Part shown: positions 2,230-43,719 of the stretch, piece after piece | Position numbering within the stretch: the first letter of the stretch is position 1 | How the letters are laid out: each line of letters starts with the position of its first letter | Assembly (NCBI GenBank): GCA_001783215.1 | Contig: MFRA01000001.1 | Location: forward strand, 62,161-126,160 | Direction of reading: 5' to 3' | Origin: Candidatus Magasanikbacteria bacterium RIFOXYD1_FULL_40_23 | GTDB taxonomy: Bacteria > Patescibacteriota > Patescibacteriia > Magasanikbacterales > GWA2-37-8 | DNA length: 64,000 nucleotides | Program-made: the position numbers and the translations under genes | The notes under the pieces: generated by a model | Database searches by the model: none | The model's input: the letters and a program-made list of their open reading frames with translations, nothing else | Told to the model about the DNA's origin: nothing

Positions 2230-4239
2230 ATGTCAGAACCAAGTGAAAAAGTGTTAAATAGTCTGGGTAATCCCGAGATTAATTTTTTTGCATCTACAAA
2301 TTTTCGCAATAATAACAGAAAGTTTGGTATAAAACTCGACGATCGTCGCCGTCATATGTATGTAGTAGGCAAAACCGGCATGGGTAAAACTACTTTGCTA
2401 GAAAATATGGTGCTAAACGATATCTACGCAGGCCATGGTGTAGGCGTGGTAGATCCGCACGGAGATTTTGCCGAAAAAATCATTGATTATATTCCGCCAA
2501 ATCGTATAAACGATGTGGTGTATTTTAATCCTTCAGACATTGATTTTCCAATTGGCTTCAATATTCTAGAATCAATTGATCCGCGCTACCGTCATTTGGT
2601 AGCATCGGGTCTTATGGGTGTGTTCAAAAAAATCTGGCCAGATGTTTGGAGTGCTCGTATGGAATATATTTTAAACAACACTCTTTTGGCATTGCTAGAA
2701 TTTCCAAACACTACTCTGCTTGGTATAAACAGATTGCTGGCCGACGACGGTTATCGCAAGCGCGTGGTGCGAAACTTAAAAGATCCGGTAATCAAAGCTT
2801 TTTGGGAAACAGAATTTGCGGGTTATAACGATAGGTACAAGCAAGAAGCTGTGGCGCCGGTACAAAACAAAATCGGTCAATTTTTGTCCGCTTCAGTTAT
2901 TCGCAATATCGTGGCGCAAGTTAAATCGCGTATCAACATTCGCGAAATTATGGATAACAAAAAAATATTTATCATGAACTTGTCCAAAGGTAGAATCGGA
3001 GAAGATAATTCCAGATTGTTAGGCGGCATGTTGATTACCAAAATTCAGTTGGCCGCCATGGAAAGAGTAGATACTCCGGAGCGTGATCGTAAAGATTTTT
3101 TCTTATACGTAGACGAATTTCAAAACTTTGCTACCGAAAGTTTTTCTAACATCTTATCTGAAGCTCGTAAGTACCGATTAGATTTAACTATGGCTCACCA
3201 GTACATGGAGCAGTTAGATGAAACAGTTCTGGCTGCCGTTATTGGTAACGTAGGTACTTTGGTTACTTTTAGAGTTGGTTCTACCGATGCCGAAGTTTTA
3301 GCCAAAGAATTTGCTCCTACTTTTATAGAAACTGATTTGGTTAACTTAACCAAATTTCAAATTTATTTAAAACTCATGATAGACGGTGTGGCTTCGCAAC
3401 CTTTTTCTGCCAACACCTTGTCGCCAATTAATATTTCTACTCAAAGCACAGATAAGGTCATTAGAGTTTCTCGTGAACGCTATGCCACCAACCGCGAAAA
3501 CATAGAAGACAAAATCATGCGTTGGACTGGTATGGAAAACGGTGGAACTGGTGACACCGATGAAGACGAAGACGATAAGTTGGACCCAGATGAAAACTAT
3601 ACCCAAGACGAAGAGGGTATGCCGGTGCTTATAGAAAAAAAGATAGTACCATCTCCAGCTCCTAAACCAAAACCAGAACCTCCAAAATTATCAGTTGCCA
3701 AACACGATATTAAATCGAATAAGAATTTAGATATAAAACAAAGTCGTCCAGTATCGTTGGTTGATGCTACTCAAAAGGGGATCAGTCTTTCTCAGGCAAT
3801 GCCAACAAGTAAGTCGGGGCATTCAAGTTTTAGTTCTGGCAAAACAGATCAGAACAGAAAACCAAATGTTTCTAATAGCCATGGCGGCGGAAACAGAAGA
3901 AACGATCAAAGACCGGGAGGAGGAAGCCAAAGACCTTCAGGCCAGTTGCAACCAAGGCAATTTGTAGAAAGTAAACCGAAACCAGTTTCTGCATCGCTAA
4001 GCCAGACACCTTCAGTTATGCCAAACACGGCTCCTTCTGCGCCAGCCACACCCGCAGAAAACAAACCTATGGTAGAGCCTTCGCTATTGTTAGCAAAGCC
4101 ATTGTCTGAGCAGGTAGTTAATGTCTTGCCAGCTGTTAAGGATGAATCAGCGCAAGCCCCGGCGCTTTTGGTTAACCAAGAGCCAAAAACATCTGGTGGC
4201 AAGATGTTTCCAAGCAGAATAATAAAGATAGATGAGTAG
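2230..4239 (+). CDS. P-loop ATPase of TraD/TraG/VirD4 coupling-protein type with long Pro/Ser/Gly-rich low-complexity C-terminal tail
   Basis: Walker A VVGKTGMGKTT, Walker B FLYVDEFQNF, downstream TMAHQ motif typical of coupling-protein/AAA_10 family; last ~250 aa are S/P/G/Q-rich. Confidence 0.5.
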   Translation: MSEPSEKVLNSLGNPEINFFASTNFRNNNRKFGIKLDDRRRHMYVVGKTGMGKTTLLENMVLNDIYAGHGVGVVDPHGDFAEKIIDYIPPNRINDVVYFNPSDIDFPIGFNILESIDPRYRHLVASGLMGVFKKIWPDVWSARMEYILNNTLLALLEFPNTTLLGINRLLADDGYRKRVVRNLKDPVIKAFWETEFAGYNDRYKQEAVAPVQNKIGQFLSASVIRNIVAQVKSRINIREIMDNKKIFIMNLSKGRIGEDNSRLLGGMLITKIQLAAMERVDTPERDRKDFFLYVDEFQNFATESFSNILSEARKYRLDLTMAHQYMEQLDETVLAAVIGNVGTLVTFRVGSTDAEVLAKEFAPTFIETDLVNLTKFQIYLKLMIDGVASQPFSANTLSPINISTQSTDKVIRVSRERYATNRENIEDKIMRWTGMENGGTGDTDEDEDDKLDPDENYTQDEEGMPVLIEKKIVPSPAPKPKPEPPKLSVAKHDIKSNKNLDIKQSRPVSLVDATQKGISLSQAMPTSKSGHSSFSSGKTDQNRKPNVSNSHGGGNRRNDQRPGGGSQRPSGQLQPRQFVESKPKPVSASLSQTPSVMPNTAPSAPATPAENKPMVEPSLLLAKPLSEQVVNVLPAVKDESAQAPALLVNQEPKTSGGKMFPSRIIKIDE

Positions 4240-4296: not shown

Positions 4297-7200
4297 ATGG
4301 ATGAAAAGCGCAACATTGCTGAATCTCATTATTTTACTGTTGTGTTATTTTTTATACTTACACTTACCGTTACGATAATCGGTATCTTTTTTTCTATTAA
4401 GGTAATTCGTGGAGCGGAAATTATTAACTGGACTCAAACTGATTGGCAAAGTGGAGTAGATAGTGGTGTTATTGCGACCAGCGCTTCAAATCAAACTGGT
4501 TGGACACAGTATTCCAGTGTAACTAATCTTTCTGCTACTTCATCGCCTGGGGATTTAAAACTCGCCACTACAAGTTCTATCGCAACAGACGATGGAACCT
4601 TTAGTGCTACAGGTCTTGCCACAGGAGGTGGGTTAAGCAATGGCACAGTAGTGAGTACGACTGTTTCCGAAAGCGGTGCGGCTGCGAGTGTTCGGCTCGC
4701 AGTAAACGCAACGACATCGGTAAATATTTTTGATTCTACGATGCCACCGGTGCCCGGAACAGTTTCAACGGGTAGCGGCATGATTCGAAATGGTGATGAT
4801 GACGAGATTTATGTGATTCAACCTGGTACGGGCTTTCACAAATATTCTGTTTCCGGTAATTCTTGGACGACACTTGCTGTTGTGCCTGGCACTGTTGGTG
4901 CGGGCAGTGAAATGATTCGCAATGGCTCGGACAATGATATTTATCTTCTTCAAGGTGGTGGTACTGGCATTTATAAGTACTCTATTTCTGACAATTCTTG
5001 GACCACACTTACTGTTGTGCCTGGTACTATTGGTAACGGTGGCACCATGATTCGTAACGGTTCGAGCGATGATATATATGTGCTCCAAGGTGGCAATGCG
5101 ACTGGCTTTTATCGTTATTCCATTGCCAGTGATACTTGGAGTGCGTTAACAGTAGTGCCAGCCACAGTTAACACTGGTGGTACTATGATTCGTAATGGCT
5201 CAGATAACGACATTTACGTTCTAGAAGGTACTGGCAGTAGTGCGTTTTTTAGATATTCCATTTCCGATAACTCTTGGACAACGCTTACAGCTGCGCCAGC
5301 TGTCGCCGGCAATGGAGCTACCATGATTCGTAATGGCTCAGACGATAACTTTTACTTTATTCCCAGCTCTTCTGGGGGCAGTACCGCTTTTTACAGCTAC
5401 TCCATCGCCAGTAATACTTGGAGTACATTAACAGTAGTACCAGCCTTTCTTTCTGGTCCCGCTTCCATGTTTCGGAGTGGGTCGGATGATTATATATATC
5501 TATTTCAAGGTGCCGTCACCAGCGCGTTTTTTAGGTACTCCATTTCTGGCAATTCCTGGACTACACTCACGGCACTGCCTGGCAATACTACAGTCAGTGG
5601 CGTTATGGTTCGAAATGGTTTGGATGACCAAATTTATGTTCTGGCAGCTGCCGCTACCAACGGTTTTTTTAAGTATTCTGTTTCTGGTAATTCTTGGGAA
5701 GGTTCAGGGGTTAGTTCAATACCAGCAGTTCCTGGCGCAGTTGGCACAGGTAGCGCTATGATCCGTAATGGCGCTGATGACGATGTGTATGTGCTCCAAG
5801 GCGGCAGCGCAACTGGCTTCTATCATTTTTCCATTGCCAGTAATACTTGGAATACATTAACCGTCGTGCCAGCTTCGGTTTCTACAGGTGCTTCCATGAT
5901 TCGCAATGGTAGTGATGATAATATTTATGTGCTTACAGGCAATGGCACTGGTTTCTATAGTTATTCTATTTCTGGCAATTCTTGGGCAACGCTTACTGTC
6001 GTGCCAGCTTCGGTTTCTACAGGTGCTTCCATGATTCGCAATGGTAGTGATGATAATATTTATGTGCTTACAGGCAATGGCACTGGTTTCTATAGTTATT
6101 CTATTTCTGGCAATTCTTGGGCAACGCTTACTGTCGTGCCAGCTTCGGTTTCTACAGGTGCTTCCATGATTCGCAATGGTAGTGATAATAACATTTATGT
6201 TTTAAGAGGTGCTAGCACTGGTTTTTATAGTTATTCTATCTCTGACAATTCTTGGACGACACTTACTGTTGTACCTGCTTCAATTGGAAGCGGTTCTTCC
6301 ATGATTCGTAATGGTTCGGACGATAGTATTTATGTCCTTCGAGGGGGGAGTACTGGTTTCTATTCTTATTCCATTTCTGGCAATTCCTGGACAACGCTTA
6401 CTGTTGTACCTTCCACTGTCGGTGCGGGTGGTAGTATGATTCGCAATGGTTCGGATGATGATATTTATATTCTTCGAGGCAATACTAGTAATGCGTTTTA
6501 TCGGTATTCCATATCTGGCAATGCTTGGACTACGCTTGTTACCGTACCAGTAAGTGTTGCTGCGGGCTGCATCATGATGCGTAATGGTGCTGACCATGAG
6601 TTATATATACTTCAAGGAAATAGCACCTCTAGCCTTTGGCGTTATCTCATAAACACCACGACATATTCCACGTCTGGTACTTTTACTTCAGCAGTCATTG
6701 ATACGGCCGGTGCGGCAACTTTTGGAAACATTTCTTGGACATCAGCGCTTCCAGTGAGCACAACATTAACGTTTGCGACGCGCTCAGGTGCTACTGCCAG
6801 TCCTGATGGTACATGGTCGGACTGGAGTACAGAACTTTCCAATTCTGCTGGCAGTGCCATAGTTTCGCCTGTAGCGCGATATATTCAGTATCGCGGTACG
6901 TTCGGCACATCCAATACAGCCAAAACCCCAACTCTCAGTAATTTTTCTTTAGCTTATAGCGCATATCAGCTCACTGGAAATTTAGTGTCATCTGTTTTCA
7001 ATACTGGTGAAGTTGATAATATCATGGGGGGTATTTCATGGACAGAAGATGTTTCACTTCCCACCAGCACAACTGTTACTGTATCCTTACGTACCGCTGC
7101 TTCTGCCGACAGTTTGATTGGTTCTTGGGTAGATTTTACTAACACTATAACGAATTGTACCAAATCATCCAGTACGGTTTCTTGTACGATTGATGCTTTG

Positions 7201-8061
7201 CCAACGGCGTTTAAATCTGGGGATGATGATCAGTATTTTCAATATAAAATTACCCTAACTTCCCCAGATGGCGTTGCTTCTCCGTCTGTTGGTGGTGTTG
7301 TTTTGTCTTATACTCAGCTGGATGCTGCTAGCGCAAGCGCGGGTGTTGCTTTTCCGGTAAATCAACTTGTTATATTAATTCCAACCGCTTCTACTTCTAG
7401 TGGCTCTGCAACTTCAACGCAGGAACAGATCCGTTCAAAAATTATTGAGGATGAAGCTCTAATTTTAAAAATGGAAGAGGCTGGACAAAAAGTGCCGATA
7501 GCGCTAAATCTATCCGCAAGAGATTATAAGGGGTTGTTTACTAAAGTCTTTGCATTCGGCTCTAAGAATATCGAAGTAAAAACCTTGCAACAGTTTTTGA
7601 ATGTCGCTGGGTTTATTGTAGCAAAAATGGGGCCAGGATCTCCCGGGAATGAAACTATTTTCTTTGGTAAATTAACAGAAGCGGCGCTTGCGAAATTTCA
7701 AGTATTCAATGGCATTACTATTGCACAAGGGAAGTTGGATCTTGAGACGCGTATTTTTATTGAAAATCTTAGTGGTACAATGTTGCCACAGTTATCAAAC
7801 GATAGAGTCCTTTCTCCTATTTTTACTCGTGATTTAAAATTAAAAATGACAGGAGAGGATGTCCGTTATCTTCAGATGTTTTTAAACAGTAAAGGCTTTA
7901 TTGTTGCTCCGTATGGCCCAGGATCTCCCGGGAATGAAACTATTTTCTTTGGTAAATTAACAGAAGCGGCGCTTGCAAAATTTAAAGTCAAGAATGATCT
8001 GCAGCCTTCATCTGGCTATCTTGATTCTAATACCAGGTCATTTATCAAATCCTTGCGTTAA
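4297..8061 (+). CDS. giant cell-surface repeat protein: N-terminal membrane anchor, ~17 tandem 45-aa repeats, two C-terminal peptidoglycan-binding (PG_binding_1-like) modules
   Basis: TM segment FTVVLFFILTLTVTIIGIFF; repeats of pattern MIRNGSDDxIYVLxGxxTGFYxYSISxNSWTTLTVVPAxV; two copies of FLNxxGFIVAxxGPGSPGNETIFFGKLTEAALAKF near C-terminus. Confidence 0.7.
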   Translation: MDEKRNIAESHYFTVVLFFILTLTVTIIGIFFSIKVIRGAEIINWTQTDWQSGVDSGVIATSASNQTGWTQYSSVTNLSATSSPGDLKLATTSSIATDDGTFSATGLATGGGLSNGTVVSTTVSESGAAASVRLAVNATTSVNIFDSTMPPVPGTVSTGSGMIRNGDDDEIYVIQPGTGFHKYSVSGNSWTTLAVVPGTVGAGSEMIRNGSDNDIYLLQGGGTGIYKYSISDNSWTTLTVVPGTIGNGGTMIRNGSSDDIYVLQGGNATGFYRYSIASDTWSALTVVPATVNTGGTMIRNGSDNDIYVLEGTGSSAFFRYSISDNSWTTLTAAPAVAGNGATMIRNGSDDNFYFIPSSSGGSTAFYSYSIASNTWSTLTVVPAFLSGPASMFRSGSDDYIYLFQGAVTSAFFRYSISGNSWTTLTALPGNTTVSGVMVRNGLDDQIYVLAAAATNGFFKYSVSGNSWEGSGVSSIPAVPGAVGTGSAMIRNGADDDVYVLQGGSATGFYHFSIASNTWNTLTVVPASVSTGASMIRNGSDDNIYVLTGNGTGFYSYSISGNSWATLTVVPASVSTGASMIRNGSDDNIYVLTGNGTGFYSYSISGNSWATLTVVPASVSTGASMIRNGSDNNIYVLRGASTGFYSYSISDNSWTTLTVVPASIGSGSSMIRNGSDDSIYVLRGGSTGFYSYSISGNSWTTLTVVPSTVGAGGSMIRNGSDDDIYILRGNTSNAFYRYSISGNAWTTLVTVPVSVAAGCIMMRNGADHELYILQGNSTSSLWRYLINTTTYSTSGTFTSAVIDTAGAATFGNISWTSALPVSTTLTFATRSGATASPDGTWSDWSTELSNSAGSAIVSPVARYIQYRGTFGTSNTAKTPTLSNFSLAYSAYQLTGNLVSSVFNTGEVDNIMGGISWTEDVSLPTSTTVTVSLRTAASADSLIGSWVDFTNTITNCTKSSSTVSCTIDALPTAFKSGDDDQYFQYKITLTSPDGVASPSVGGVVLSYTQLDAASASAGVAFPVNQLVILIPTASTSSGSATSTQEQIRSKIIEDEALILKMEEAGQKVPIALNLSARDYKGLFTKVFAFGSKNIEVKTLQQFLNVAGFIVAKMGPGSPGNETIFFGKLTEAALAKFQVFNGITIAQGKLDLETRIFIENLSGTMLPQLSNDRVLSPIFTRDLKLKMTGEDVRYLQMFLNSKGFIVAPYGPGSPGNETIFFGKLTEAALAKFKVKNDLQPSSGYLDSNTRSFIKSLR
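5866..6135 (+). repeat. two perfectly identical tandem 135-bp units (45 codons each) inside the repeat-protein gene; a third unit continues with divergence
   Basis: 5866-6000 and 6001-6135 are identical base for base (gtgccagcttcggtttctacaggtgcttccatgattcgcaatgg...cttactgtc). Confidence 0.85.
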
Positions 8062-36467: not shown

Positions 36468-36603
36468 TATCCGAGTGAGGTTATATGGCTGCAAATTTGT
36501 TCACCACCATCTTTCTAAAAGACAAGTTTTATCTCTAGAAAGATAGTGAGGTGGCGAACGAATGTTGCCAGGCTCACTGTTAAACGACGTTATAGTCGGA
36601 GGG

Positions 36604-36984
36604 CTAGAAGCCCAGTGTTGCGAGAGCCTGATCGGCTTCGTCGGGAGAGCAAGTGCCCATCCGTTGAGCGATCATGATCTGGCTCGCAACAGGTGTTGCT
36701 TGCGGCAACAATTCCTCGAGCACAGACCGGCGCAAAACCATGAGCGCTTGCAGAATCGAGAGTCGATCCAACAAGGGCAGGTTCTTCTGCTGGATGCGCA
36801 ACGCAAGGACCCGAAGGTCCATTGTGCCGAACAGTACCATGCAGGCTTCGTTGTGTGAGCGAAAGCTCGGGGACTGGAAACCCCCGGGCAGTTCGCGTAA
36901 ACTGCCATCCTGGCAGAGCTCCCCAGTAGCGAGGATGAACTGACCAGTGTGGCCGATGGGCTTGACGAAAACTCGCTCGTTCAT
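36604..36984 (-). CDS. small protein (126 aa), island 2 (start at MNERVFV)
   Basis: GGAGG 10 nt upstream of ATG; balanced composition unlike overlapping Arg/Ser-rich alternative frames; own promoter. Confidence 0.55.
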   Translation of the reverse strand: MNERVFVKPIGHTGQFILATGELCQDGSLRELPGGFQSPSFRSHNEACMVLFGTMDLRVLALRIQQKNLPLLDRLSILQALMVLRRSVLEELLPQATPVASQIMIAQRMGTCSPDEADQALATLGF

Positions 36985-37049
36985 AATGATGGCCTCCAAG
37001 CCTGGTTGAGAGAACGGTTTGTTCCCTCAGCGGGCAGAAAGAACGCGTT

Positions 37050-37109
37050 ATTTTGCCGAGGGAAAGGAAAAGACGATCTTTTCGTATGTTCTTTTCCCTG
37101 GCAAAAGGC
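37050..37109 (-). promoter_or_regulatory. conserved structured 5' UTR hairpin (UUUUGCCAGGG...CCCUCGGCAAAA), copy 1 of 3
   Basis: transcript reads ccttttgccagggaaaagaacatacgaaaagatcgtcttttcctttccctcggcaaaat; outer and inner inverted repeats; ~90 nt upstream of start codon. Confidence 0.55.
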
Positions 37110-37138
37110 GTTACTGCGTGGATTGTAAAGAGCTCTGT

Positions 37139-37167
37139 AATATAGGTTAAAATCTTGCCTTTGTCAA
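37139..37167 (-). promoter_or_regulatory. sigma70-like promoter TTGACA-17-TATATT for 36604-36984
   Basis: minus strand taTTGACAaaggcaagattttaaccTATATT. Confidence 0.55.
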
Positions 37168-37367
37168 TAGGCAAACCCACCACTCTATTTGGAAATATAC
37201 CACTGGGGATATATAATCAATATACACCTAAGATGTGCCTAAAGTTACAATCTATACAAAAAATCAAAAACAGCCTTATCTAAAGCTGTTTTTTAATGGC
37301 GACGTCGTGGTATGCACGACGTCGGCGAGTCGTAATTCTTCTAAACCCGTATCATCAGTCCTGTGGA

Positions 37368-37634
37368 CTAGATGATCTCGAGTTCGACCCTCTCGTACTT
37401 GATTCCCGGATGGGTGGGCTCGTCCCAGTCGAAGTATAGCTCATACACCGCTTCGTCAACGGCAGCAGCGATCTCTTCTGGTGTTCCCAACAACATCGGC
37501 ATGGAGTCGTTGTCGTTTGCAGTCTCCTCGGTTTGAGGAGTGCTTCCGTTGTCTTCTAGAGACTGACCACGTTGATGGGTCATCAGCACGGATTCTGCAA
37601 GTGCGAGGAACTGCGGATCTTCAGGACGAATCAT
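37368..37634 (-). CDS. small acidic protein (88 aa), island 2
   Basis: AGGAG SD; MIRPEDPQFLALAESVLMTHQRGQSLEDNG...; own promoter. Confidence 0.5.
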   Translation of the reverse strand: MIRPEDPQFLALAESVLMTHQRGQSLEDNGSTPQTEETANDNDSMPMLLGTPEEIAAAVDEAVYELYFDWDEPTHPGIKYERVELEII

Positions 37635-37714
37635 TCAGTAGCTCCTAGGAGAGTGGGGTTTATCAATACGAGACGACGCGCAAGTTTGGTTGCGGTGTCT
37701 CATTATGACCAAAA

Positions 37715-37743
37715 ACCATACCATAAAATGTTGTTAAAGTCAA
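37715..37743 (-). promoter_or_regulatory. sigma70-like promoter TTGACT-17-TATGGT for 37368-37634
   Basis: minus strand cTTGACTttaacaacattttatggTATGGT. Confidence 0.5.
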
Positions 37744-37770
37744 GAGCGTAGGGTAGAAAATGATTAAAAT

Positions 37771-37817
37771 AAAAAAAGCCTCGCTTTCGCAAGGCGTCGC
37801 CGTGTATTTTGTTTTTT
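37771..37817. terminator. bidirectional intrinsic terminator
   Basis: aaaaaaagcctcgctttcgcaaggcg...tattttgttttttgg: hairpin GCCTCGC/GCAAGGC with A-run and T-run flanks. Confidence 0.55.
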
Positions 37818-37824
37818 GGCTGTT

Positions 37825-38184
37825 TTAGCCAACAATTATGGATCGCTTGACCCGATTTTCCGTAAGGTAATCAATCACTTCGGAAAGGTCTGGGTTGCTG
37901 TTTCGGATATCTCTGAAACGTGTGTTGAGCAGAGACTTTTTTCCAAAGATAGATCTTGCATACGGCAATCCATTTTGGACTATTCTCTTGACGTCGAAAC
38001 GTCTATCTTTGTTCGGCCCTTCGAAGATAACGACAGTTTCGTCATCTTCGACGATTACAGAGCAGCTCCAATCTTCTTCGCCCACCAACAGATGTGGTGG
38101 ACCAGAATCATCTTTGGGCGGTTCAAGTTTTAGCACGAGCAGGTTGATGCTGCGGAGCAAACCCATGATATGTTGTACCGTCAT
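37825..38184 (-). CDS. small protein (119 aa), island 2
   Basis: GGTGAGG SD; promoter TTGAAA-17-TATATT upstream; plus-strand overlapping ORF lacks signals. Confidence 0.5.
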   Translation of the reverse strand: MTVQHIMGLLRSINLLVLKLEPPKDDSGPPHLLVGEEDWSCSVIVEDDETVVIFEGPNKDRRFDVKRIVQNGLPYARSIFGKKSLLNTRFRDIRNSNPDLSEVIDYLTENRVKRSIIVG

Positions 38185-38217
38185 GGTGCCTCACCCTTTG
38201 GTTGTTTAGTATAGACG

Positions 38218-38246
38218 AATATACCACCAAACCTTTATTTTTTCAA
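38218..38246 (-). promoter_or_regulatory. sigma70-like promoter TTGAAA-17-TATATT for 37825-38184
   Basis: minus strand gcTTGAAAaaataaaggtttggtggTATATT. Confidence 0.5.
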
Positions 38247-38312
38247 GCTAAATTTACAACGTCACTCTTTAGCGGATGTTGCGTGGTATAACTTAATTAA
38301 GTCAAAAAAAAG

Positions 38313-38362
38313 ACCTCGTATTGAAGTTGCCTTGGGGGCTATTCAATACGAGGCTGAACGTC
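38313..38362 (-). terminator. intrinsic terminator of 38403-38798
   Basis: 12-bp stem CCTCGTATTGAA/TTCAATACGAGG with 16-nt loop, T8 on minus strand. Confidence 0.65.
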
Positions 38363-38402
38363 TTGGTCTGCTTTGCGACTGATGTCGCTGGTAGAACCTA
38401 GT

Positions 38403-38798
38403 CTACTGCTGAGCGGTGTTGCGGGGGTACAAGTAGATGTAGCACCCCGTGTCGTGCGAGTCGACCGCGTAGCCGGTCTGGTCCTTCTCGGCCTCGAGGC
38501 GGAGCTCGACGTTGGTCGGCAGGCTGCGGACGATCGCGTTGATCTCCTTGTTGGCCTTGGCGCAGGGGATGCGGCCGAGGCGAGCGCGGAGCTCGAGGTC
38601 CTGGATCTCCTTGATCGCGGCCTTGAGCTGCTTCTTGCTGATGCTCTTGGCAGCCGCGGCGCGCACGGGCTTCTTCTCGTTGGTGTCGTTCGCCTTCGAG
38701 ACGAAGCCGGCGTCGGCGTGGGCCGTGCTGATGCCGAGGTCGAACAGGGCGATGAAGCCGACGGTCAGGGCGATGGCGATGATGGCGATGCGGGTCAT
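38403..38798 (-). CDS. small secreted protein (131 aa, signal peptide), island 2
   Basis: MTRIAIIAIALTVGFIALFDLGISTAHA signal-peptide-like N-terminus; GAGGAG SD; lysine/alanine-rich mature part. Confidence 0.55.
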   Translation of the reverse strand: MTRIAIIAIALTVGFIALFDLGISTAHADAGFVSKANDTNEKKPVRAAAAKSISKKQLKAAIKEIQDLELRARLGRIPCAKANKEINAIVRSLPTNVELRLEAEKDQTGYAVDSHDTGCYIYLYPRNTAQQ

Positions 38799-38857
38799 GG
38801 GACTCTCCTCGGTAACGGGTTCGTAACGTTAACTGCTTGCCGGCGCACAAAGGTGTG

Positions 38858-38914
38858 CTTTTGTGCCGGGGAAGTGAAAGTGTAGCCTCTACACTCCCTT
38901 TTCCCTGGCAAAAC
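38858..38914 (-). promoter_or_regulatory. conserved structured 5' UTR hairpin, copy 2 of 3
   Basis: transcript reads cgttttgccagggaaaagggagtgtagaggctacactttcacttccccggcacaaaag; same outer arms UUUUGCCAGGG/CCCCGGCA.AAAA. Confidence 0.55.
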
Positions 38915-38945
38915 GCAAACAGTTATTATTAAAGATCAACAGACA

Positions 38946-38974
38946 ACTATACCATAAAACTAGGACTTTGTCAA
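38946..38974 (-). promoter_or_regulatory. sigma70-like promoter TTGACA-17-TATAGT for 38403-38798
   Basis: minus strand ccTTGACAaagtcctagttttatggTATAGT. Confidence 0.55.
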
Positions 38975-39040
38975 GGGGTTGATTTGGCGAAATCACGTCG
39001 CGTAGCGTCCATTGAACGCGACGTTTGGCTAATTTTAGGC

Positions 39041-39084
39041 AAAAAAACAGCGCTACCTACACCTAGTTGGTGAGTGGTAGCGCC
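39041..39084 (-). terminator. intrinsic terminator of 39116-39529
   Basis: minus strand gcgctaccactcaccaactaggtgtaggtagcgc then tgttttttt. Confidence 0.55.
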
Positions 39085-39115
39085 TGCGTTGGTACGGCTC
39101 TAGTCGCAGTTGCGA

Positions 39116-39529
39116 CTATGGCCAGATAAGTGGAATGTCCATGCTGGGGTAGATGGCCTCCAGGGTGTAGAGGTCCATGTCCATCACGGACAGGTACCAC
39201 TCGAAGTCGAAGAGTTCGACGGAAGTCGTGGGAGGGTTAGCATCCCACCAAGCACAGTTGCCAAACCGCCACCTTCGCAGAGCTTCGTAGTACTCCGCTT
39301 CCAGCTCGACAAGCTTGTCTCGACAAGCTTGGCTAGTCGTGCCGCCGATATAGCGACAGGTAAGCTTTGGGTATTGGAGCTGGCTCTCGGCGAGGGTGTA
39401 TCGCTGCTTCAGCTTCTTGCACGTATCGTAGTCGTACGTGCCCGAGGGTGGCGTATCGGCATAGGCCGTGCCGACGTTCGGCAGCAGCATGCCCAGAGCA
39501 ATACACATCGCGATCAGGATCTTCACCAT
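39116..39529 (-). CDS. small secreted Cys-containing protein (137 aa), island 2 (start at MVKILIAM)
   Basis: GGAGAG SD before internal Met; MVKILIAMCIALGMLLPNVGTAYA signal peptide; four Cys in mature part. Confidence 0.55.
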   Translation of the reverse strand: MVKILIAMCIALGMLLPNVGTAYADTPPSGTYDYDTCKKLKQRYTLAESQLQYPKLTCRYIGGTTSQACRDKLVELEAEYYEALRRWRFGNCAWWDANPPTTSVELFDFEWYLSVMDMDLYTLEAIYPSMDIPLIWP

Positions 39530-39564
39530 TTCTCTGTCTCTCCAATTTCTTCTGTGACGGTTGA

Positions 39565-39619
39565 TTTTTACCAAGACGAAAGAAGCTACGAATTTCGCAT
39601 ATTCTTTTATCTCGGTAAA
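39565..39619 (-). promoter_or_regulatory. conserved structured 5' UTR hairpin, copy 3 of 3 (with compensatory ACC:GGU for GCC:GGC)
   Basis: transcript reads ctttaccgagataaaagaatatgcgaaattcgtagcttctttcgtcttggtaaaaat. Confidence 0.55.
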
Positions 39620-39682: not shown

Positions 39683-39699
39683 AGTCGGACTAGTAGATC

Positions 39700-40010
39700 A
39701 TTTTCAAAAATCCTTGATTTTACTTTGATTTACATGTAAAATAATCGCGTTCTTACCATTTTGTATAGCTTAACCACTTCGCGTATGGAACAGGAATAAT
39801 TACAAAATCTTCCAGTCGTGATTACCAGATTTTGTCCTTTAAAATCATCGAAAGTTTTGGTGCTTCTATTGCAGTACCAGTGGTAAGATTTGTTCTAATC
39901 GGTCAATACTTTGATAAAAAATATAACTTATAACCGTTGTTTACTGTTATAGCCTTTGTGCTGGCCGCTGCCACCACTCAAAACGCAAAAAAACTATTTA
40001 GTAAAATGAT
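39700..40010 (+). pseudogene. decayed duplicate of atp-operon promoter plus atpZ/atpI-like gene (direct repeat of 43355-43660)
   Basis: ~85% identical by eye to 43355-43660 including TTGA(t/c)T promoter; reading frame broken: atggaacaggaaTAA after 4 codons and second in-frame TAA where intact copy has LSP. Confidence 0.7.
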
Positions 40011-40023
40011 GTTATAATTAAGT

Positions 40024-40854
40024 ATGAATGAAATAAAACACGGAATGGATCCGGAGACTGCTCGAGAAGAGGGAAGAAAATCTGTTCGTGAAACGCTAGC
40101 GCATACGTTAGGGTTTATTGCTCAGCGCATAGATGCGGAAGGGTTAGATTCGCTAGAGGACGATGCGGTTAAAGCTTTGTGTAGTTATAGAATGGGAGAT
40201 GCGCTTAGGGTGGAAGTTGAGATTCCAAAATCAATAAGGAAGTTTTTTGCAGAACGAAAAGATTTTTCCGTTTTAAAAAAAGTTTTAGAAGACACAACCG
40301 AAACGATGAATAAAATTATCTCCAATCCCGATATCTTTGTTACTGGTACTTCTGATTCAGAAGAACAGAAAATAATTAATAAACAACTTGTTACAGAACG
40401 CGACCAGGCTGAAAGTTTGTATAGAGTATTGGTTTGGAAAGCTGTGCTGCACCATCTTGCTCCTACAGATATTGCTGGTTTTACAGAATTTTGTGAATGT
40501 ATAGAGCGTTATGATGCAATGCTTGTGTCGCGAGGTATAACACGTAAGGCAGCCTCTAGCTTGCTTGGAAACCGCTTTTTCTTATTGGAAAAATCGCAAA
40601 GTTGGGTAGAAAAATTGTCGCACCCGGAAGGTGCGAAAAATCGGCCATTTTCTGAAGCTGAACCGAACTTAGAGAGTGTGAGCAACTATATTGTTGATGG
40701 TAATTCCGCTGAATGGGTCGAGGGCTATGCCGCTCAGAATGTTCAATTTAAAACAGATTTAATAGAAAAGATCCATTCTTTTATAGATATTAATGAAGAG
40801 GTAAGTGTACGGGCTAGTGAATGGTTAAAAAATCAGCAGTCGCTAGAAAATTAA
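40024..40854 (+). CDS. hypothetical protein (276 aa), cassette gene 1
   Basis: hydrophilic ORF, no motif assigned. Confidence 0.5.
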   Translation: MNEIKHGMDPETAREEGRKSVRETLAHTLGFIAQRIDAEGLDSLEDDAVKALCSYRMGDALRVEVEIPKSIRKFFAERKDFSVLKKVLEDTTETMNKIISNPDIFVTGTSDSEEQKIINKQLVTERDQAESLYRVLVWKAVLHHLAPTDIAGFTEFCECIERYDAMLVSRGITRKAASSLLGNRFFLLEKSQSWVEKLSHPEGAKNRPFSEAEPNLESVSNYIVDGNSAEWVEGYAAQNVQFKTDLIEKIHSFIDINEEVSVRASEWLKNQQSLEN

Positions 40855-40858
40855 ATAA

Positions 40859-41806
40859 TTAGTTTGTTATATCATCTTCTTTATCAAAAGAAAATTGACC
40901 ATCAGGACAGTTGAAAAGTTTATCAAATAGTAGGCGGGGATCAGGGTATTTTGTTATTACACTATGGAAGGCTTGTGCAATCTCATTCCCTCCATCATTT
41001 TCTGCACTTTGCTCTCCAGCAGTATGGTTTGAAGGAAGCAGGTCTTCAAATTCCTCTAACTGACGTAGCGTTTCGGTAGACAACTCCGGCGGGTAATGTA
41101 TGTTATAATCATATAGTCTCTGGCTAGCGGCAAAGCTTTCCATTGCGTCTTCGGGAGATTCGCCCGGTTCAAGGTTTATTGTAGCGGTTATATTTCCGTT
41201 TTTTACCGCTTGGGTTGATTTATTATCTGCAATTATTTCCAATTCTTTACGGCGTGCTTCTGGAACAAGTTTCATGTAGTGTGCGGGAATCTCAACGCTA
41301 GAAGCGTACTGCACTATTTGATTTTCTAAAAAAATAACAAATGTATCGCGAGCTACAGTCAAAATATCTTTATTATTACTACGGTATTCTAGGAGTAAAT
41401 ATGCCCTTTGAGGCAGTAGCTGTTCTACTATTACCGATAAGGCAGTACGCTGAAATCCGGGAAGTTTTTCCCATATTCCTTTTAGTGCAGCTTCATTTAT
41501 TTTAATTTTTTCGATCGGGGTCCAGTCTGGATTAAAGTTGTTTCGTACACCCTCGAGACTATATAATAGTAACATAGCTACAAAAGCCGGTAAATCTCTT
41601 GCGGTGGCCATTAAATTTTTATCCTCTAGTACTCGTAAGTATTGTGCTTCGGCAGGGGTTAGTGGTTTTTGGTTTTCTACAGCAAGCATCTTTTCGTATT
41701 CATCAACTAAACTGTTGTAAGCTTTTTTTGACTCTGGAGATAGGATAAGTTCTAAGGATGGTTCATCGGCCGTCAGTGCGTCAAAATGGTGTCTTTGATT
41801 ATCCAT
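40859..41806 (-). CDS. hypothetical protein (315 aa), cassette gene 2, convergent with gene 1
   Basis: hydrophilic acidic ORF on minus strand, stops 5 nt from gene-1 stop. Confidence 0.5.
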   Translation of the reverse strand: MDNQRHHFDALTADEPSLELILSPESKKAYNSLVDEYEKMLAVENQKPLTPAEAQYLRVLEDKNLMATARDLPAFVAMLLLYSLEGVRNNFNPDWTPIEKIKINEAALKGIWEKLPGFQRTALSVIVEQLLPQRAYLLLEYRSNNKDILTVARDTFVIFLENQIVQYASSVEIPAHYMKLVPEARRKELEIIADNKSTQAVKNGNITATINLEPGESPEDAMESFAASQRLYDYNIHYPPELSTETLRQLEEFEDLLPSNHTAGEQSAENDGGNEIAQAFHSVITKYPDPRLLFDKLFNCPDGQFSFDKEDDITN

Positions 41807-41960
41807 AAATCAAATTTAATTTAAAAACTTATTAATATACTAACATCTTAATTCTAAGACAGTCAATTCAAGCTTTTATTTAGTTGATTTTTCTATTAAA
41901 AAGGGCTAAACTTTCCATGTCCCCACCTTTAATTTATAAGATTTTATTTAATATAATAGT

Positions 41961-42440
41961 ATGGCCGAGCATTTTGAAGGCGGTTATCATTCAAAAGAAG
42001 AACCGACAACAGTCGAAGTAGATCAAGACGAAGAATGGAAGTTTGCTTCGGCCCCAGCCGTTATTGAAACAACAGGGCTTGGTCCTTGCTTTGGTATAAT
42101 TATTTATGATCCCGAAAGCAAGTCTGCCTTTCTCGGGCATTTTGTTGACCCCCGTACAAATGGTTTTGATGGCATGCTAGCAGAAGCTAAAAAACATTTC
42201 AAAGATTTTACCAATTTGCAGGCATATGTTGGTGGAGGTGAACCAAATCCCGACGATGCTCCCTATTTTAAAGAAGACAAAGCCAAAAGAACCTTTGTAA
42301 AAAACAAGTTACTTCAAAGCGGGTTTAACAAGGAGAAGCTCAAAATTAAATATCAGGACTCAAACCAAAGTACGATTTTAAGAATTGATACGGTTACTGG
42401 AAACGTAGATTGGGACACCGAAGACGAGGATAACTATTGA
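41961..42440 (+). CDS. CheD-like (glutamine deamidase fold) protein, cassette gene 3
   Basis: TTGLGPCFGIIIYDPESKSAFLGHFVDP matches CheD catalytic-Cys block (T.LGSCV.V.LYDP....GG..H.MLP); 159 aa = CheD size; TATAAT ends 3 nt before ATG (possibly leaderless). Confidence 0.45.
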   Translation: MAEHFEGGYHSKEEPTTVEVDQDEEWKFASAPAVIETTGLGPCFGIIIYDPESKSAFLGHFVDPRTNGFDGMLAEAKKHFKDFTNLQAYVGGGEPNPDDAPYFKEDKAKRTFVKNKLLQSGFNKEKLKIKYQDSNQSTILRIDTVTGNVDWDTEDEDNY

Positions 42441-42501
42441 CACCTCTTAAATGTTCCACTACCCAGAATAAACGATTTTTTATTATTTAAATTTTATTTA
42501 T

Positions 42502-43341
42502 ATGGGAGAACGAAGGAAAAACCCCTCAGAAGCAGTGGGTGCTGGTAAAAAAGAAAAACATGAATTTAAGTTTAAGGAATTAAGCGAGGAAGAAAGATAT
42601 GATGAAGCGAAAAAAAACGCTCGTATGGTTCTCAAAGAACTTGCTCCGGCAGGTTCTACCGATGATACTCAGGTGGCATATCACTGGAACGAACACGACT
42701 TTGATTCCAATCCGAAAATAGCAACTATTGGAGAATTGCGTATAATGATAGAGCACATGGAAGATTGTAATGCGGGAGGGCCAGGGTATCCTGGTATGCG
42801 TTTTACTATTTCTCATTTAAGTGTGGGGGATGAATTTGTAAGGCGTGAACGCGTGGTATCTTTTTGTCGTGAGGCTAGGTTAAAAAATTTATCCAAATGG
42901 GGTCCGTTAGAAGACGACGCTGTTATTTGGGTAACCACCACGAAACGCCCGCAACCAAGGAAAACAATAGTGAGAGAGTGGTTGGGAATGTTGGGAAAAT
43001 TAGATTACGCTGCTGCAGAAGCAGATAACGAAATGGGAGGGGAACACATTGTTTCTATTGATCCAAATTTTGATCCAAAAAAATGGGACGAGGAAAACCG
43101 TAGAGAACAGGTTGGAATGATACAAAAGGTAATTGATGCTGTAGAAAACCGGGGCCGATTGTTAGAAGGGTTAGAAGCAAGAAAAGACAAGTCTCTAGTA
43201 CGCCTTTTTTTTCCTAAGACTGGCGAGAGTATCACTCTAACGCCTAAAAAAATGCGTTTACATATTCAGTCATTATCACGTGGTGTTCTTGAAGACCAGG
43301 AGCCAATTTTTACCGACGTCTATGCATCTGAGGATAATTAA
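42502..43341 (+). CDS. hypothetical protein (279 aa), cassette gene 4
   Basis: hydrophilic ORF, no motif assigned. Confidence 0.5.
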   Translation: MGERRKNPSEAVGAGKKEKHEFKFKELSEEERYDEAKKNARMVLKELAPAGSTDDTQVAYHWNEHDFDSNPKIATIGELRIMIEHMEDCNAGGPGYPGMRFTISHLSVGDEFVRRERVVSFCREARLKNLSKWGPLEDDAVIWVTTTKRPQPRKTIVREWLGMLGKLDYAAAEADNEMGGEHIVSIDPNFDPKKWDEENRREQVGMIQKVIDAVENRGRLLEGLEARKDKSLVRLFFPKTGESITLTPKKMRLHIQSLSRGVLEDQEPIFTDVYASEDN

Positions 43342-43372
43342 TTTTTACCAAAGGCATTATTTTTCAAAAACC

Positions 43373-43401
43373 TTGACTTTTCTAGGATTTATATGTAAAA
43401 T
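43373..43401 (+). promoter_or_regulatory. sigma70-like promoter TTGACT-17-TAAAAT of atp operon
   Basis: ccTTGACTtttctaggatttatatgTAAAAT; duplicated (degenerate) at 39712-39740. Confidence 0.55.
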
Positions 43402-43443
43402 AGTCGCGTTCTTACCGTTTTATATAGATTCGTTACTTAACGT

Positions 43444-43719
43444 ATGGAACCGCAAAACCCACAAAAATCTTCCGGCCGTGATTACCAGATATTGGCCTTC
43501 AAAATCATCGGAAGTTTTGGTGCTTCTATCGCAGTGCCGGTAGTAGGATTTGTTCTAATCGGTCAATACTTTGATAAAAAATATAGCTTGTCACCGCTGT
43601 TTACTATATTAGCCTTTGTGCTGGCCGCTGCAATTTCTGCAAAGATAATCCACAAACAAGCAAAAAGTTTTGGCGCAGAATACAAAAGGTTAAATGATGC
43701 TGGAAAGATAATCAAGTAA
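43444..43719 (+). CDS. AtpZ/AtpI-like small membrane protein preceding atpB
   Basis: 91 aa, two hydrophobic segments, position immediately upstream of F0 a-subunit. Confidence 0.5.
   Translation: MEPQNPQKSSGRDYQILAFKIIGSFGASIAVPVVGFVLIGQYFDKKYSLSPLFTILAFVLAAAISAKIIHKQAKSFGAEYKRLNDAGKIIK

Follow-up and report, generated by a model that had tools for sequence, protein, structure and literature searches.

The window analysed here is a stretch of 64,000 nucleotides from Candidatus Magasanikbacteria bacterium RIFOXYD1_FULL_40_23, a groundwater member of the Patescibacteria with a tiny genome (contig MFRA01000001.1, positions 62,161 to 126,160 of the forward strand), and the subject of this report is a gene in it for a 159-residue protein resembling CheD, the glutamine deamidase of chemoreceptors. 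Judged from its sequence, the protein is a distant but true relative of CheD and, by CheD's own family criteria, a member of a separate sister family and not a canonical CheD. We consider it highly probable that the protein is one of the cysteine hydrolases of the CheD superfamily and has no link to chemotaxis. With moderate confidence we favour a stand-alone, cytoplasmic Cys-His-Thr amidohydrolase of CNF1/YfiH-like fold, which would deamidate Gln or Asn of a substrate other than a chemoreceptor. The resemblance to CheD had been proposed in a preliminary description, made by a model from the nucleotide sequence and a list of its open reading frames (ORFs).

Relationship to CheD and the predicted catalytic triad

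The ORF was found as described, with the reported motif at residues 37–64 (TTGLGPCFGIIIYDPESKSAFLGHFVDP), and its start is backed by seven close homologues that begin at the same place. Its base composition is native to the genome (40.6% GC; 34% GC at third codon positions, GC3). The product has the length that had been claimed for it, 159 residues compared with ~160 in CheD.

Searches with the single sequence gave low scores. Seven NCBIfam CheD models matched residues ~25–72 (best E = 2.2e-4, 21 bits), scoring 12–21 bits against cut-offs of 223–369 bits (251 bits for the best model), and a phmmer search of the PDB matched only CheD from T. maritima (2F9Z, E = 0.0075). Pfam family PF03975, suggested as a check in the preliminary description, gave no match for the protein even at E ≤ 10. 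Clustered at 50% identity, the relatives collected by an exhaustive profile search numbered 458 representatives at E ≤ 1e-3, 134 of them at E ≤ 1e-10; the family statistics given throughout are from 131 analysed members, out of the best 150 of the 458 representatives. A profile of these 131 relatives retrieved 2F9Z at E = 7.7e-12. When compared by hhalign with five bona fide CheDs, the same profile aligned at 97.8% probability (E = 8.5e-13) over 139 collinear columns, spanning the full length at 19% identity.

An AlphaFold model of the window protein, built from an 8-sequence alignment, was confident (pLDDT 80.4, pTM 0.75). The predicted fold is a CNF1/YfiH-like alpha-beta-beta sandwich and is closest to CheD, with 2F9Z as the top structural match in Foldseek (E = 2.8e-8, TM 0.69/0.71). 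The single-sequence matches are thus weak but concordant, and the profile and structure comparisons indicate that the resemblance to CheD is genuine.

In T. maritima CheD, the catalytic triad consists of Thr21, Cys27 and His44 (PMC7022378). Allowing for a 2-residue offset of the PDB chain, Thr37, Cys43 and His60 of the window protein align with these three residues, and the spacing is equal in the two proteins, with 6 residues from Thr to Cys and 17 from Cys to His. The claimed match to the CheD catalytic block is borne out by this alignment together with the profile comparisons. The Cys/His pair on which the preliminary description had staked its case is conserved among the relatives, each residue being kept in 129/131, while the third position holds Thr or Ser in 117/131. 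The spacing is preserved as well, for Thr-to-Cys in 130 and for Cys-to-His in 129 of the 131 relatives. The family further has in common with CheD (PF03975, COG1871) a GG motif after the central strand.

Differences from canonical CheD in sequence, hosts and neighbours

PF03975 matched none of the 131 relatives at E ≤ 0.01, whereas the same tool, used as a positive control, found it in all five canonical CheDs taken from annotated replicons (84–117 bits). The Pfam model spans only residues 52–158 of a 166-residue CheD, that is, downstream of the catalytic Cys/His block. Because the model omits this block, the negative result reflects a divergent C-terminal two-thirds of the protein and not an absent block. 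The window family is ~19–20% identical to CheD and scores below every curated family threshold.

The differences include several near the active site. The family carries GLGPC where CheD has LGSC, with Pro replacing the Ser before the Cys in 116/131 members. The family is missing a loop of ~13 residues that follows the His strand and precedes the first helix; in the control CheDs this loop carries an invariant Tyr next to the active site. Counted from the His, the GG motif lies a median of 32 residues away in the family, versus 43–46 in the three control CheDs for which the measurement is unambiguous. The Asn of the RN motif, invariant in the control CheDs, is replaced by Arg in 113/131 members; CheD-invariant residues were defined from an alignment of the five controls. 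Most family members also end in an acidic tail. Fold, chemistry and nearest family were already known; a separate family without a Pfam model or a study is new. Our literature search found no paper on CheD-like proteins of Candidate Phyla Radiation (CPR) or DPANN organisms.

The family also occurs in lineages reported to lack chemotaxis. The named genomes of relatives belong to Patescibacteria, Minisyncoccia, one archaeon represented by a metagenome-assembled genome (MAG), and one 11-kb contig binned as Gammaproteobacteria. Patescibacteria have been reported to be without flagellar and chemotaxis functions (Tian et al. 2020, PMC7137472). The same survey counts a 'chemoreceptor glutamine deamidase' in its motility/chemotaxis category, which as a whole averages only 0.7–0.8 genes per Patescibacteria genome; the deamidase entry probably reflects the CheD-like family, automatically labelled as CheD. 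JGI annotates one family member, P0007, as CheD.

The annotated genes of the window are housekeeping or of unknown function. They include ribosomal proteins, aminoacyl-tRNA synthetases, an F-type ATP synthase operon, MreBCD, a PBP2-like transpeptidase, glycosyltransferases and a VirD4-like ATPase. No chemotaxis gene is found among them, so that the absence claimed in the preliminary description holds for all annotated genes of the 64 kb.

We gathered 31 loci carrying a family member, representing ~19 distinct contexts. The alignment-based locus search used 26 members, the 131-member alignment being too divergent for the search pattern. No che gene flanks a family member in any of the ~19 contexts. 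By contrast, four of the five canonical cheD controls lie inside che operons, among cheA/W/C, genes for methyl-accepting chemotaxis proteins (MCPs), cheR or cheB. The fifth control, on Azospirillum argentinense plasmid p4 (L038, 2818–3480), is a canonical CheD (PF03975, 84 bits) outside a che operon, with a cold-shock gene on one side and a serine hydrolase gene on the other; a true cheD can thus be locally orphaned.

All-against-all clustering of the ORFs from the 31 loci revealed no neighbour family common to independent loci, with recurrences only within the same strain. The direct neighbours vary and encode MreB, a GT4 glycosyltransferase, an IS200-like transposase, IS4-type transposases with AAA ATPases, GIY-YIG, cytochrome b5, RtcB, a NiFe hydrogenase subunit, an M23 peptidase, MOSC and an RsmI-like methylase.

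Some unusual arrangements were observed as well. In one lineage (L006, 111–806; L007, 351–1046; L008, 66–1081), the CheD-like gene is preceded at a distance of 12 nt by a 65-residue HTH-XRE gene, and in L008 it is also followed by another HTH gene, of MqsA-like type. This layout resembles a toxin–antitoxin module and was seen in that lineage only. P0012, a 285-residue member, carries ankyrin repeats as a C-terminal fusion (Ank_2, E = 2e-28), which hints at a role in protein–protein interaction for at least some members. P0078, encoded on a 38.7-kb Logan contig, comprises 1858 residues, in which CheD/NTAN1-like domains are repeated many times in tandem with Ser/Thr-rich linkers between them; several of these domains have lost the catalytic Cys, and the protein passes the Pfam NTAN1 model (32 bits versus a threshold of 24).

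Predicted activity and alternative roles

CheD, NTAN1, CNF1 and BLF1 use a His-activated Cys thiolate to hydrolyse Gln or Asn side-chain amides of proteins or peptides (PMC7022378). Given the intact triad, the same amide-hydrolysing chemistry is predicted for the window protein. Thr37 would orient His60, which would in turn activate the thiol of Cys43. The resulting thiolate would attack the carboxamide on the side chain of a substrate Gln (or Asn), releasing ammonia and forming a thioester, and water would then hydrolyse the thioester to yield Glu (or Asp). We infer catalysis, the deamidation reaction and the protein substrate by homology with these four enzymes, and we place the chances of protein deamidation as the specific activity at about even.

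A chemoreceptor is a very unlikely substrate, given the Patescibacteria and archaeal hosts and the lack of che linkage in the window and the ~19 contexts. The missing Tyr loop and the altered motifs near the active site suggest that the substrate differs from the helical MCP sites of CheD. Since no neighbour is conserved, a broadly conserved cellular protein or peptide is a more likely target than a partner encoded beside the gene. A hydrophobic, signal-peptide-like N-terminus was found in 0/131 members, which favours a cytoplasmic location. Ankyrin repeats mediate protein–protein interactions, and the fusion in P0012 therefore hints at a protein as substrate.

Several points weigh against the amidohydrolase that we favour. 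Its fold is taken from a predicted structure, built from eight aligned sequences. Within the superfamily, YfiH/PgeF act on small molecules or peptidoglycan precursors, and a protein substrate is therefore not guaranteed. Taxonomic labels exist for a handful of family members, and the absence of che and MCP genes covers 64 kb of the genome (~84 kb with flanks). Finally, the BLASTP threshold used in clustering the neighbours, 1e-5, may have missed a fast-evolving partner.

Four other roles were weighed, which rank in decreasing order as effector or toxin, small-molecule amidase, N-terminal amidase and true chemotaxis CheD. The first is a deamidase effector that the episymbiont would deliver to its host cell, there to modify a conserved GTPase, helicase or translation factor much as CNF1 or BLF1 do, or alternatively the toxin of a toxin–antitoxin pair; we regard this as unlikely. 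The family has its superfamily and the Cys/His chemistry in common with CNF1 and BLF1, in which the fold has been redirected to protein targets other than chemoreceptors. Its distribution is sporadic and accessory-like and common to Patescibacteria and the archaeal MAG, and its surroundings are variable, including insertion sequence (IS) elements and, in the window, an inserted block. The HTH-XRE gene upstream in one lineage and the existence of the ankyrin fusion and of the 1858-residue multi-domain protein also speak for this role.

However, the CNF1/BLF1 toxins have delivery domains or are secreted, whereas the window protein is a bare, cytoplasmic-looking single domain without an immunity partner. 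Besides the missing signal peptides, Pfam revealed no delivery or translocation domain in the 131 members, and no immunity or antitoxin gene is conserved next to the family. PADLOC, a viral contig scan and a search of INPHARED phages returned nothing, and the single weak match of a plasmid search was an annotated canonical cheD; phage or plasmid copies were thus not found. The gene is, moreover, compositionally native and fixed in the species. The preliminary description had offered an effector, a toxin or a modification enzyme. The first two are disfavoured by these results, while the last survives in the form of the deamidase-type enzyme favoured here. Less probable still is a more far-reaching version, in which the whole family would serve ultrasmall episymbionts as protein-glutamine deamidase effectors specific to their lifestyle. 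Patescibacteria and DPANN-type archaea would have exchanged its genes, and the proteins would enter the host through cell-to-cell contact and switch a conserved GTPase, helicase or translation factor there, as CNF1 and BLF1 do in eukaryotic cells; the ankyrin-fused and multi-domain versions would then be elaborations of the same weapon.

It is likewise improbable that the protein is an amidase or hydrolase of a small molecule or short peptide, such as free Gln or Asn, a precursor of the cell wall like that of YfiH/PgeF, or a nucleoside like that of YlmD. Such a role would agree with the lack of a conserved protein partner, and it would suit tiny-genome organisms, which depend heavily on salvage. 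But the closest relatives, CheD and then NTAN1, act on Gln or Asn of proteins or peptides. YfiH/PgeF and YlmD (PF02578) are larger, at ~240–270 residues, and handle small-molecule or peptidoglycan-precursor substrates with a His-Cys-His zinc site; the window family has a single His conserved in at least 90% of its members and lacks this metal site. None of the 131 members matches PF02578, and the archaeal member would be without peptidoglycan.

Very unlikely is a prokaryotic NTAN1-like N-terminal amidase, which would convert N-terminal Asn or Gln to Asp or Glu and feed an N-degron pathway. NTAN1 (PF14736, 6A0E) has the CNF1/YfiH-like sandwich fold and a Cys/His/(Ser or Thr) triad in common with the window protein, and the Pfam NTAN1 model is reached by P0078 and by one of the 131 relatives (E = 5e-4), although not by the window protein itself. 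NTAN1 is, however, a eukaryotic protein of ~310 residues, in which a C-terminal appendage caps the active site and binds the N-terminal amine of the substrate (PMC7022378). This region, which gives the enzyme its N-terminal specificity, is absent from the window protein: the latter ends at residue 159, and its structural match covers 127/305 NTAN1 residues. Among solved structures, the family profile finds CheD and not NTAN1 (6A0E), and no ClpS, Aat or Bpt gene lies nearby in the window.

The least likely role is that of a divergent but ordinary chemotaxis CheD, deamidating or demethylating chemoreceptors encoded elsewhere in the genome: full-length homology, the same triad and length, the JGI name of one member and the Azospirillum cheD outside a che operon support it, but PF03975 reaches none of the 131 relatives and all five controls, the NCBIfam scores fall far short of their cut-offs, the Tyr loop is absent, the invariant Ser and Asn are replaced, and no che gene occurs in the window or in the ~19 contexts of a family whose Patescibacteria hosts are reported to be without chemotaxis and flagella.

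Genomic setting and meaning for the family

The CheD-like gene is one of four genes (40024–43341) that lie between two direct repeats (Table 1). The repeats, ~275–330 nt long and 77–89% identical, each contain a promoter and an atpI-like gene, and the decayed copy is situated 3.66 kb upstream of the intact one; its pseudo-atpI is 83% identical in amino-acid sequence to AtpI residues 8–65. In its start position the 276-residue gene corresponds exactly to atpB behind the intact atpI. The repeats and the gene order indicate that the four genes were inserted between pseudo-atpI and its intact counterpart, with ~330 nt duplicated. The cassette that had been described, flanked by repeats and holding three further proteins of unassigned function, is therefore real. 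A promoter-like site at 39714–39742 mirrors that at 43373–43401, and this duplicated site may now drive the 276-residue gene.

Table 1 Features of the four-gene block and its surroundings (window coordinates)
Feature	Position	Strand	Description
Left repeat	39697..39978	+	Decayed atp-operon promoter and atpI-like gene (pseudo-atpI) with frameshift and in-frame stops
276-residue protein	40024..40854	+	Function unassigned; first block gene, directly after pseudo-atpI and the duplicated promoter
315-residue protein	40859..41806	-	Function unassigned; second block gene
Divergent intergenic region	41807..41960	.	154 nt between the 315-residue gene (-) and the CheD-like gene; holds TATAAT at 41952-41957
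CheD-like gene	41961..42440	+	ATG start, 159 residues; putative stand-alone Cys-His-Thr amidohydrolase of a distinct CheD sister family
Thr37 codon	42069..42071	+	Aligned to Thr21 of 2F9Z, which orients the catalytic His
Cys43 codon	42087..42089	+	Predicted nucleophile; aligned to CheD Cys27; Cys in 129/131 members
His60 codon	42138..42140	+	Predicted general base; aligned to CheD His44; His in 129/131 members
279-residue protein	42502..43341	+	Function unassigned; 61 nt downstream of the CheD-like gene
Right repeat	43356..43719	+	Intact promoter and atpI-like gene (43444..43719, PF09527 ATPase_gene1) opening the F-type ATP synthase operon

The block is native in composition, with 39–42% GC and 30–34% GC3, like the atp genes. 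It is 99.9–100% identical in six other assemblies, five of which contain it at full length (one with a single gap), while the sixth is a contig that begins inside the block. All eight contexts of identical AtpB contain the block where the contig reaches far enough, and no empty insertion site was found among them. Together with the near-identical copies, this indicates that the insertion is old compared with the population sampled and that the species is fixed for it.

The 276- and 315-residue proteins had no match in Pfam, NCBIfam or PADLOC. In a search of 5.8 billion proteins, the 315-residue protein matched nothing, not even itself, although several public contigs have the gene called; either the protein is a true orphan, or the word index of the search is blind to it. 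The 279-residue protein had two matches. One is identical, a hypothetical protein of Candidatus Magasanikbacteria bacterium RIFOXYD2_FULL_39, and the other, its sole relative (71% identical), lies in an unrelated locus (L034) with no CheD-like gene within 10 kb. This relative sits beside genes for a type IV secretion system (T4SS)-like ATPase and DUF8128; the ATPase resembles the VirD4/TrwB-like ATPase of the window.

A tblastn search with the three block neighbours against all fetched loci revealed nothing beyond their own species except this unlinked relative. The co-occurrence of the four cassette proteins proposed for study in the preliminary description was thus not seen elsewhere among the 31 loci. 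Its suggestion of a partner encoded in the cassette is not supported, since the neighbours adjoin the CheD-like gene only in their own species and never travel with it elsewhere.

The TATAAT hexamer noted upstream of the CheD-like gene is present and ends 3 nt before the ATG. The leaderless transcript suggested on this basis is doubtful. With a -10 box 3 nt before the ATG, a start site at the usual spacing would fall inside the ORF, and a consensus scan of the + strand of 41807..41960 for a sigma-70-type promoter found none. A Shine-Dalgarno-like motif lies within 20 nt of the start codon in 3/46 window genes. Its lack is thus a genome-wide trait and not specific to the CheD-like gene, and Shine-Dalgarno pairing seems to play little part in starting translation in this genome.

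Elsewhere in the window, Rfam and tRNA scans found nothing. A GC-rich island occupies positions 36500–39600 of this 38.7% GC genome and encodes a 131-residue signal-peptide protein (38403..38798, - strand; 65.7% GC, 97.7% GC3) and a 152-residue signal-peptide protein (39116..39574, - strand; 55% GC, 71% GC3). Since several independent assemblies contain the island, it is no chimera; it has the look of DNA recently acquired from a donor of high GC content. The 152-residue protein is 73% identical between two strains in which the flanks are 100% identical. Near the start of the window, a gene for a VirD4/TrwB-like coupling-protein ATPase (2230..4239, + strand) is followed by one for a 1254-residue protein with Kelch repeats and two peptidoglycan-binding domains (4297..8061, + strand).

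For the family as a whole, our analysis indicates that the CheD label given by some pipelines is a misannotation, affecting a group of at least 458 clusters at 50% identity for which Pfam has no model. A family restricted to ultrasmall prokaryotes without chemotaxis is new, and its separate treatment would correct what is probably an automatic CheD label in the survey of non-motile Patescibacteria. It fills the CheD/NTAN1 branch of the CNF1/YfiH-like hydrolases and may help to relate the chemoreceptor enzyme to the eukaryotic N-degron amidase. Interest in the family would rise sharply if it proved to be a host-directed effector or to carry out a new regulatory deamidation. For the organisms themselves, the finding points to a target of protein deamidation, or of a related amidase activity, in very small proteomes, where each retained enzyme likely matters.

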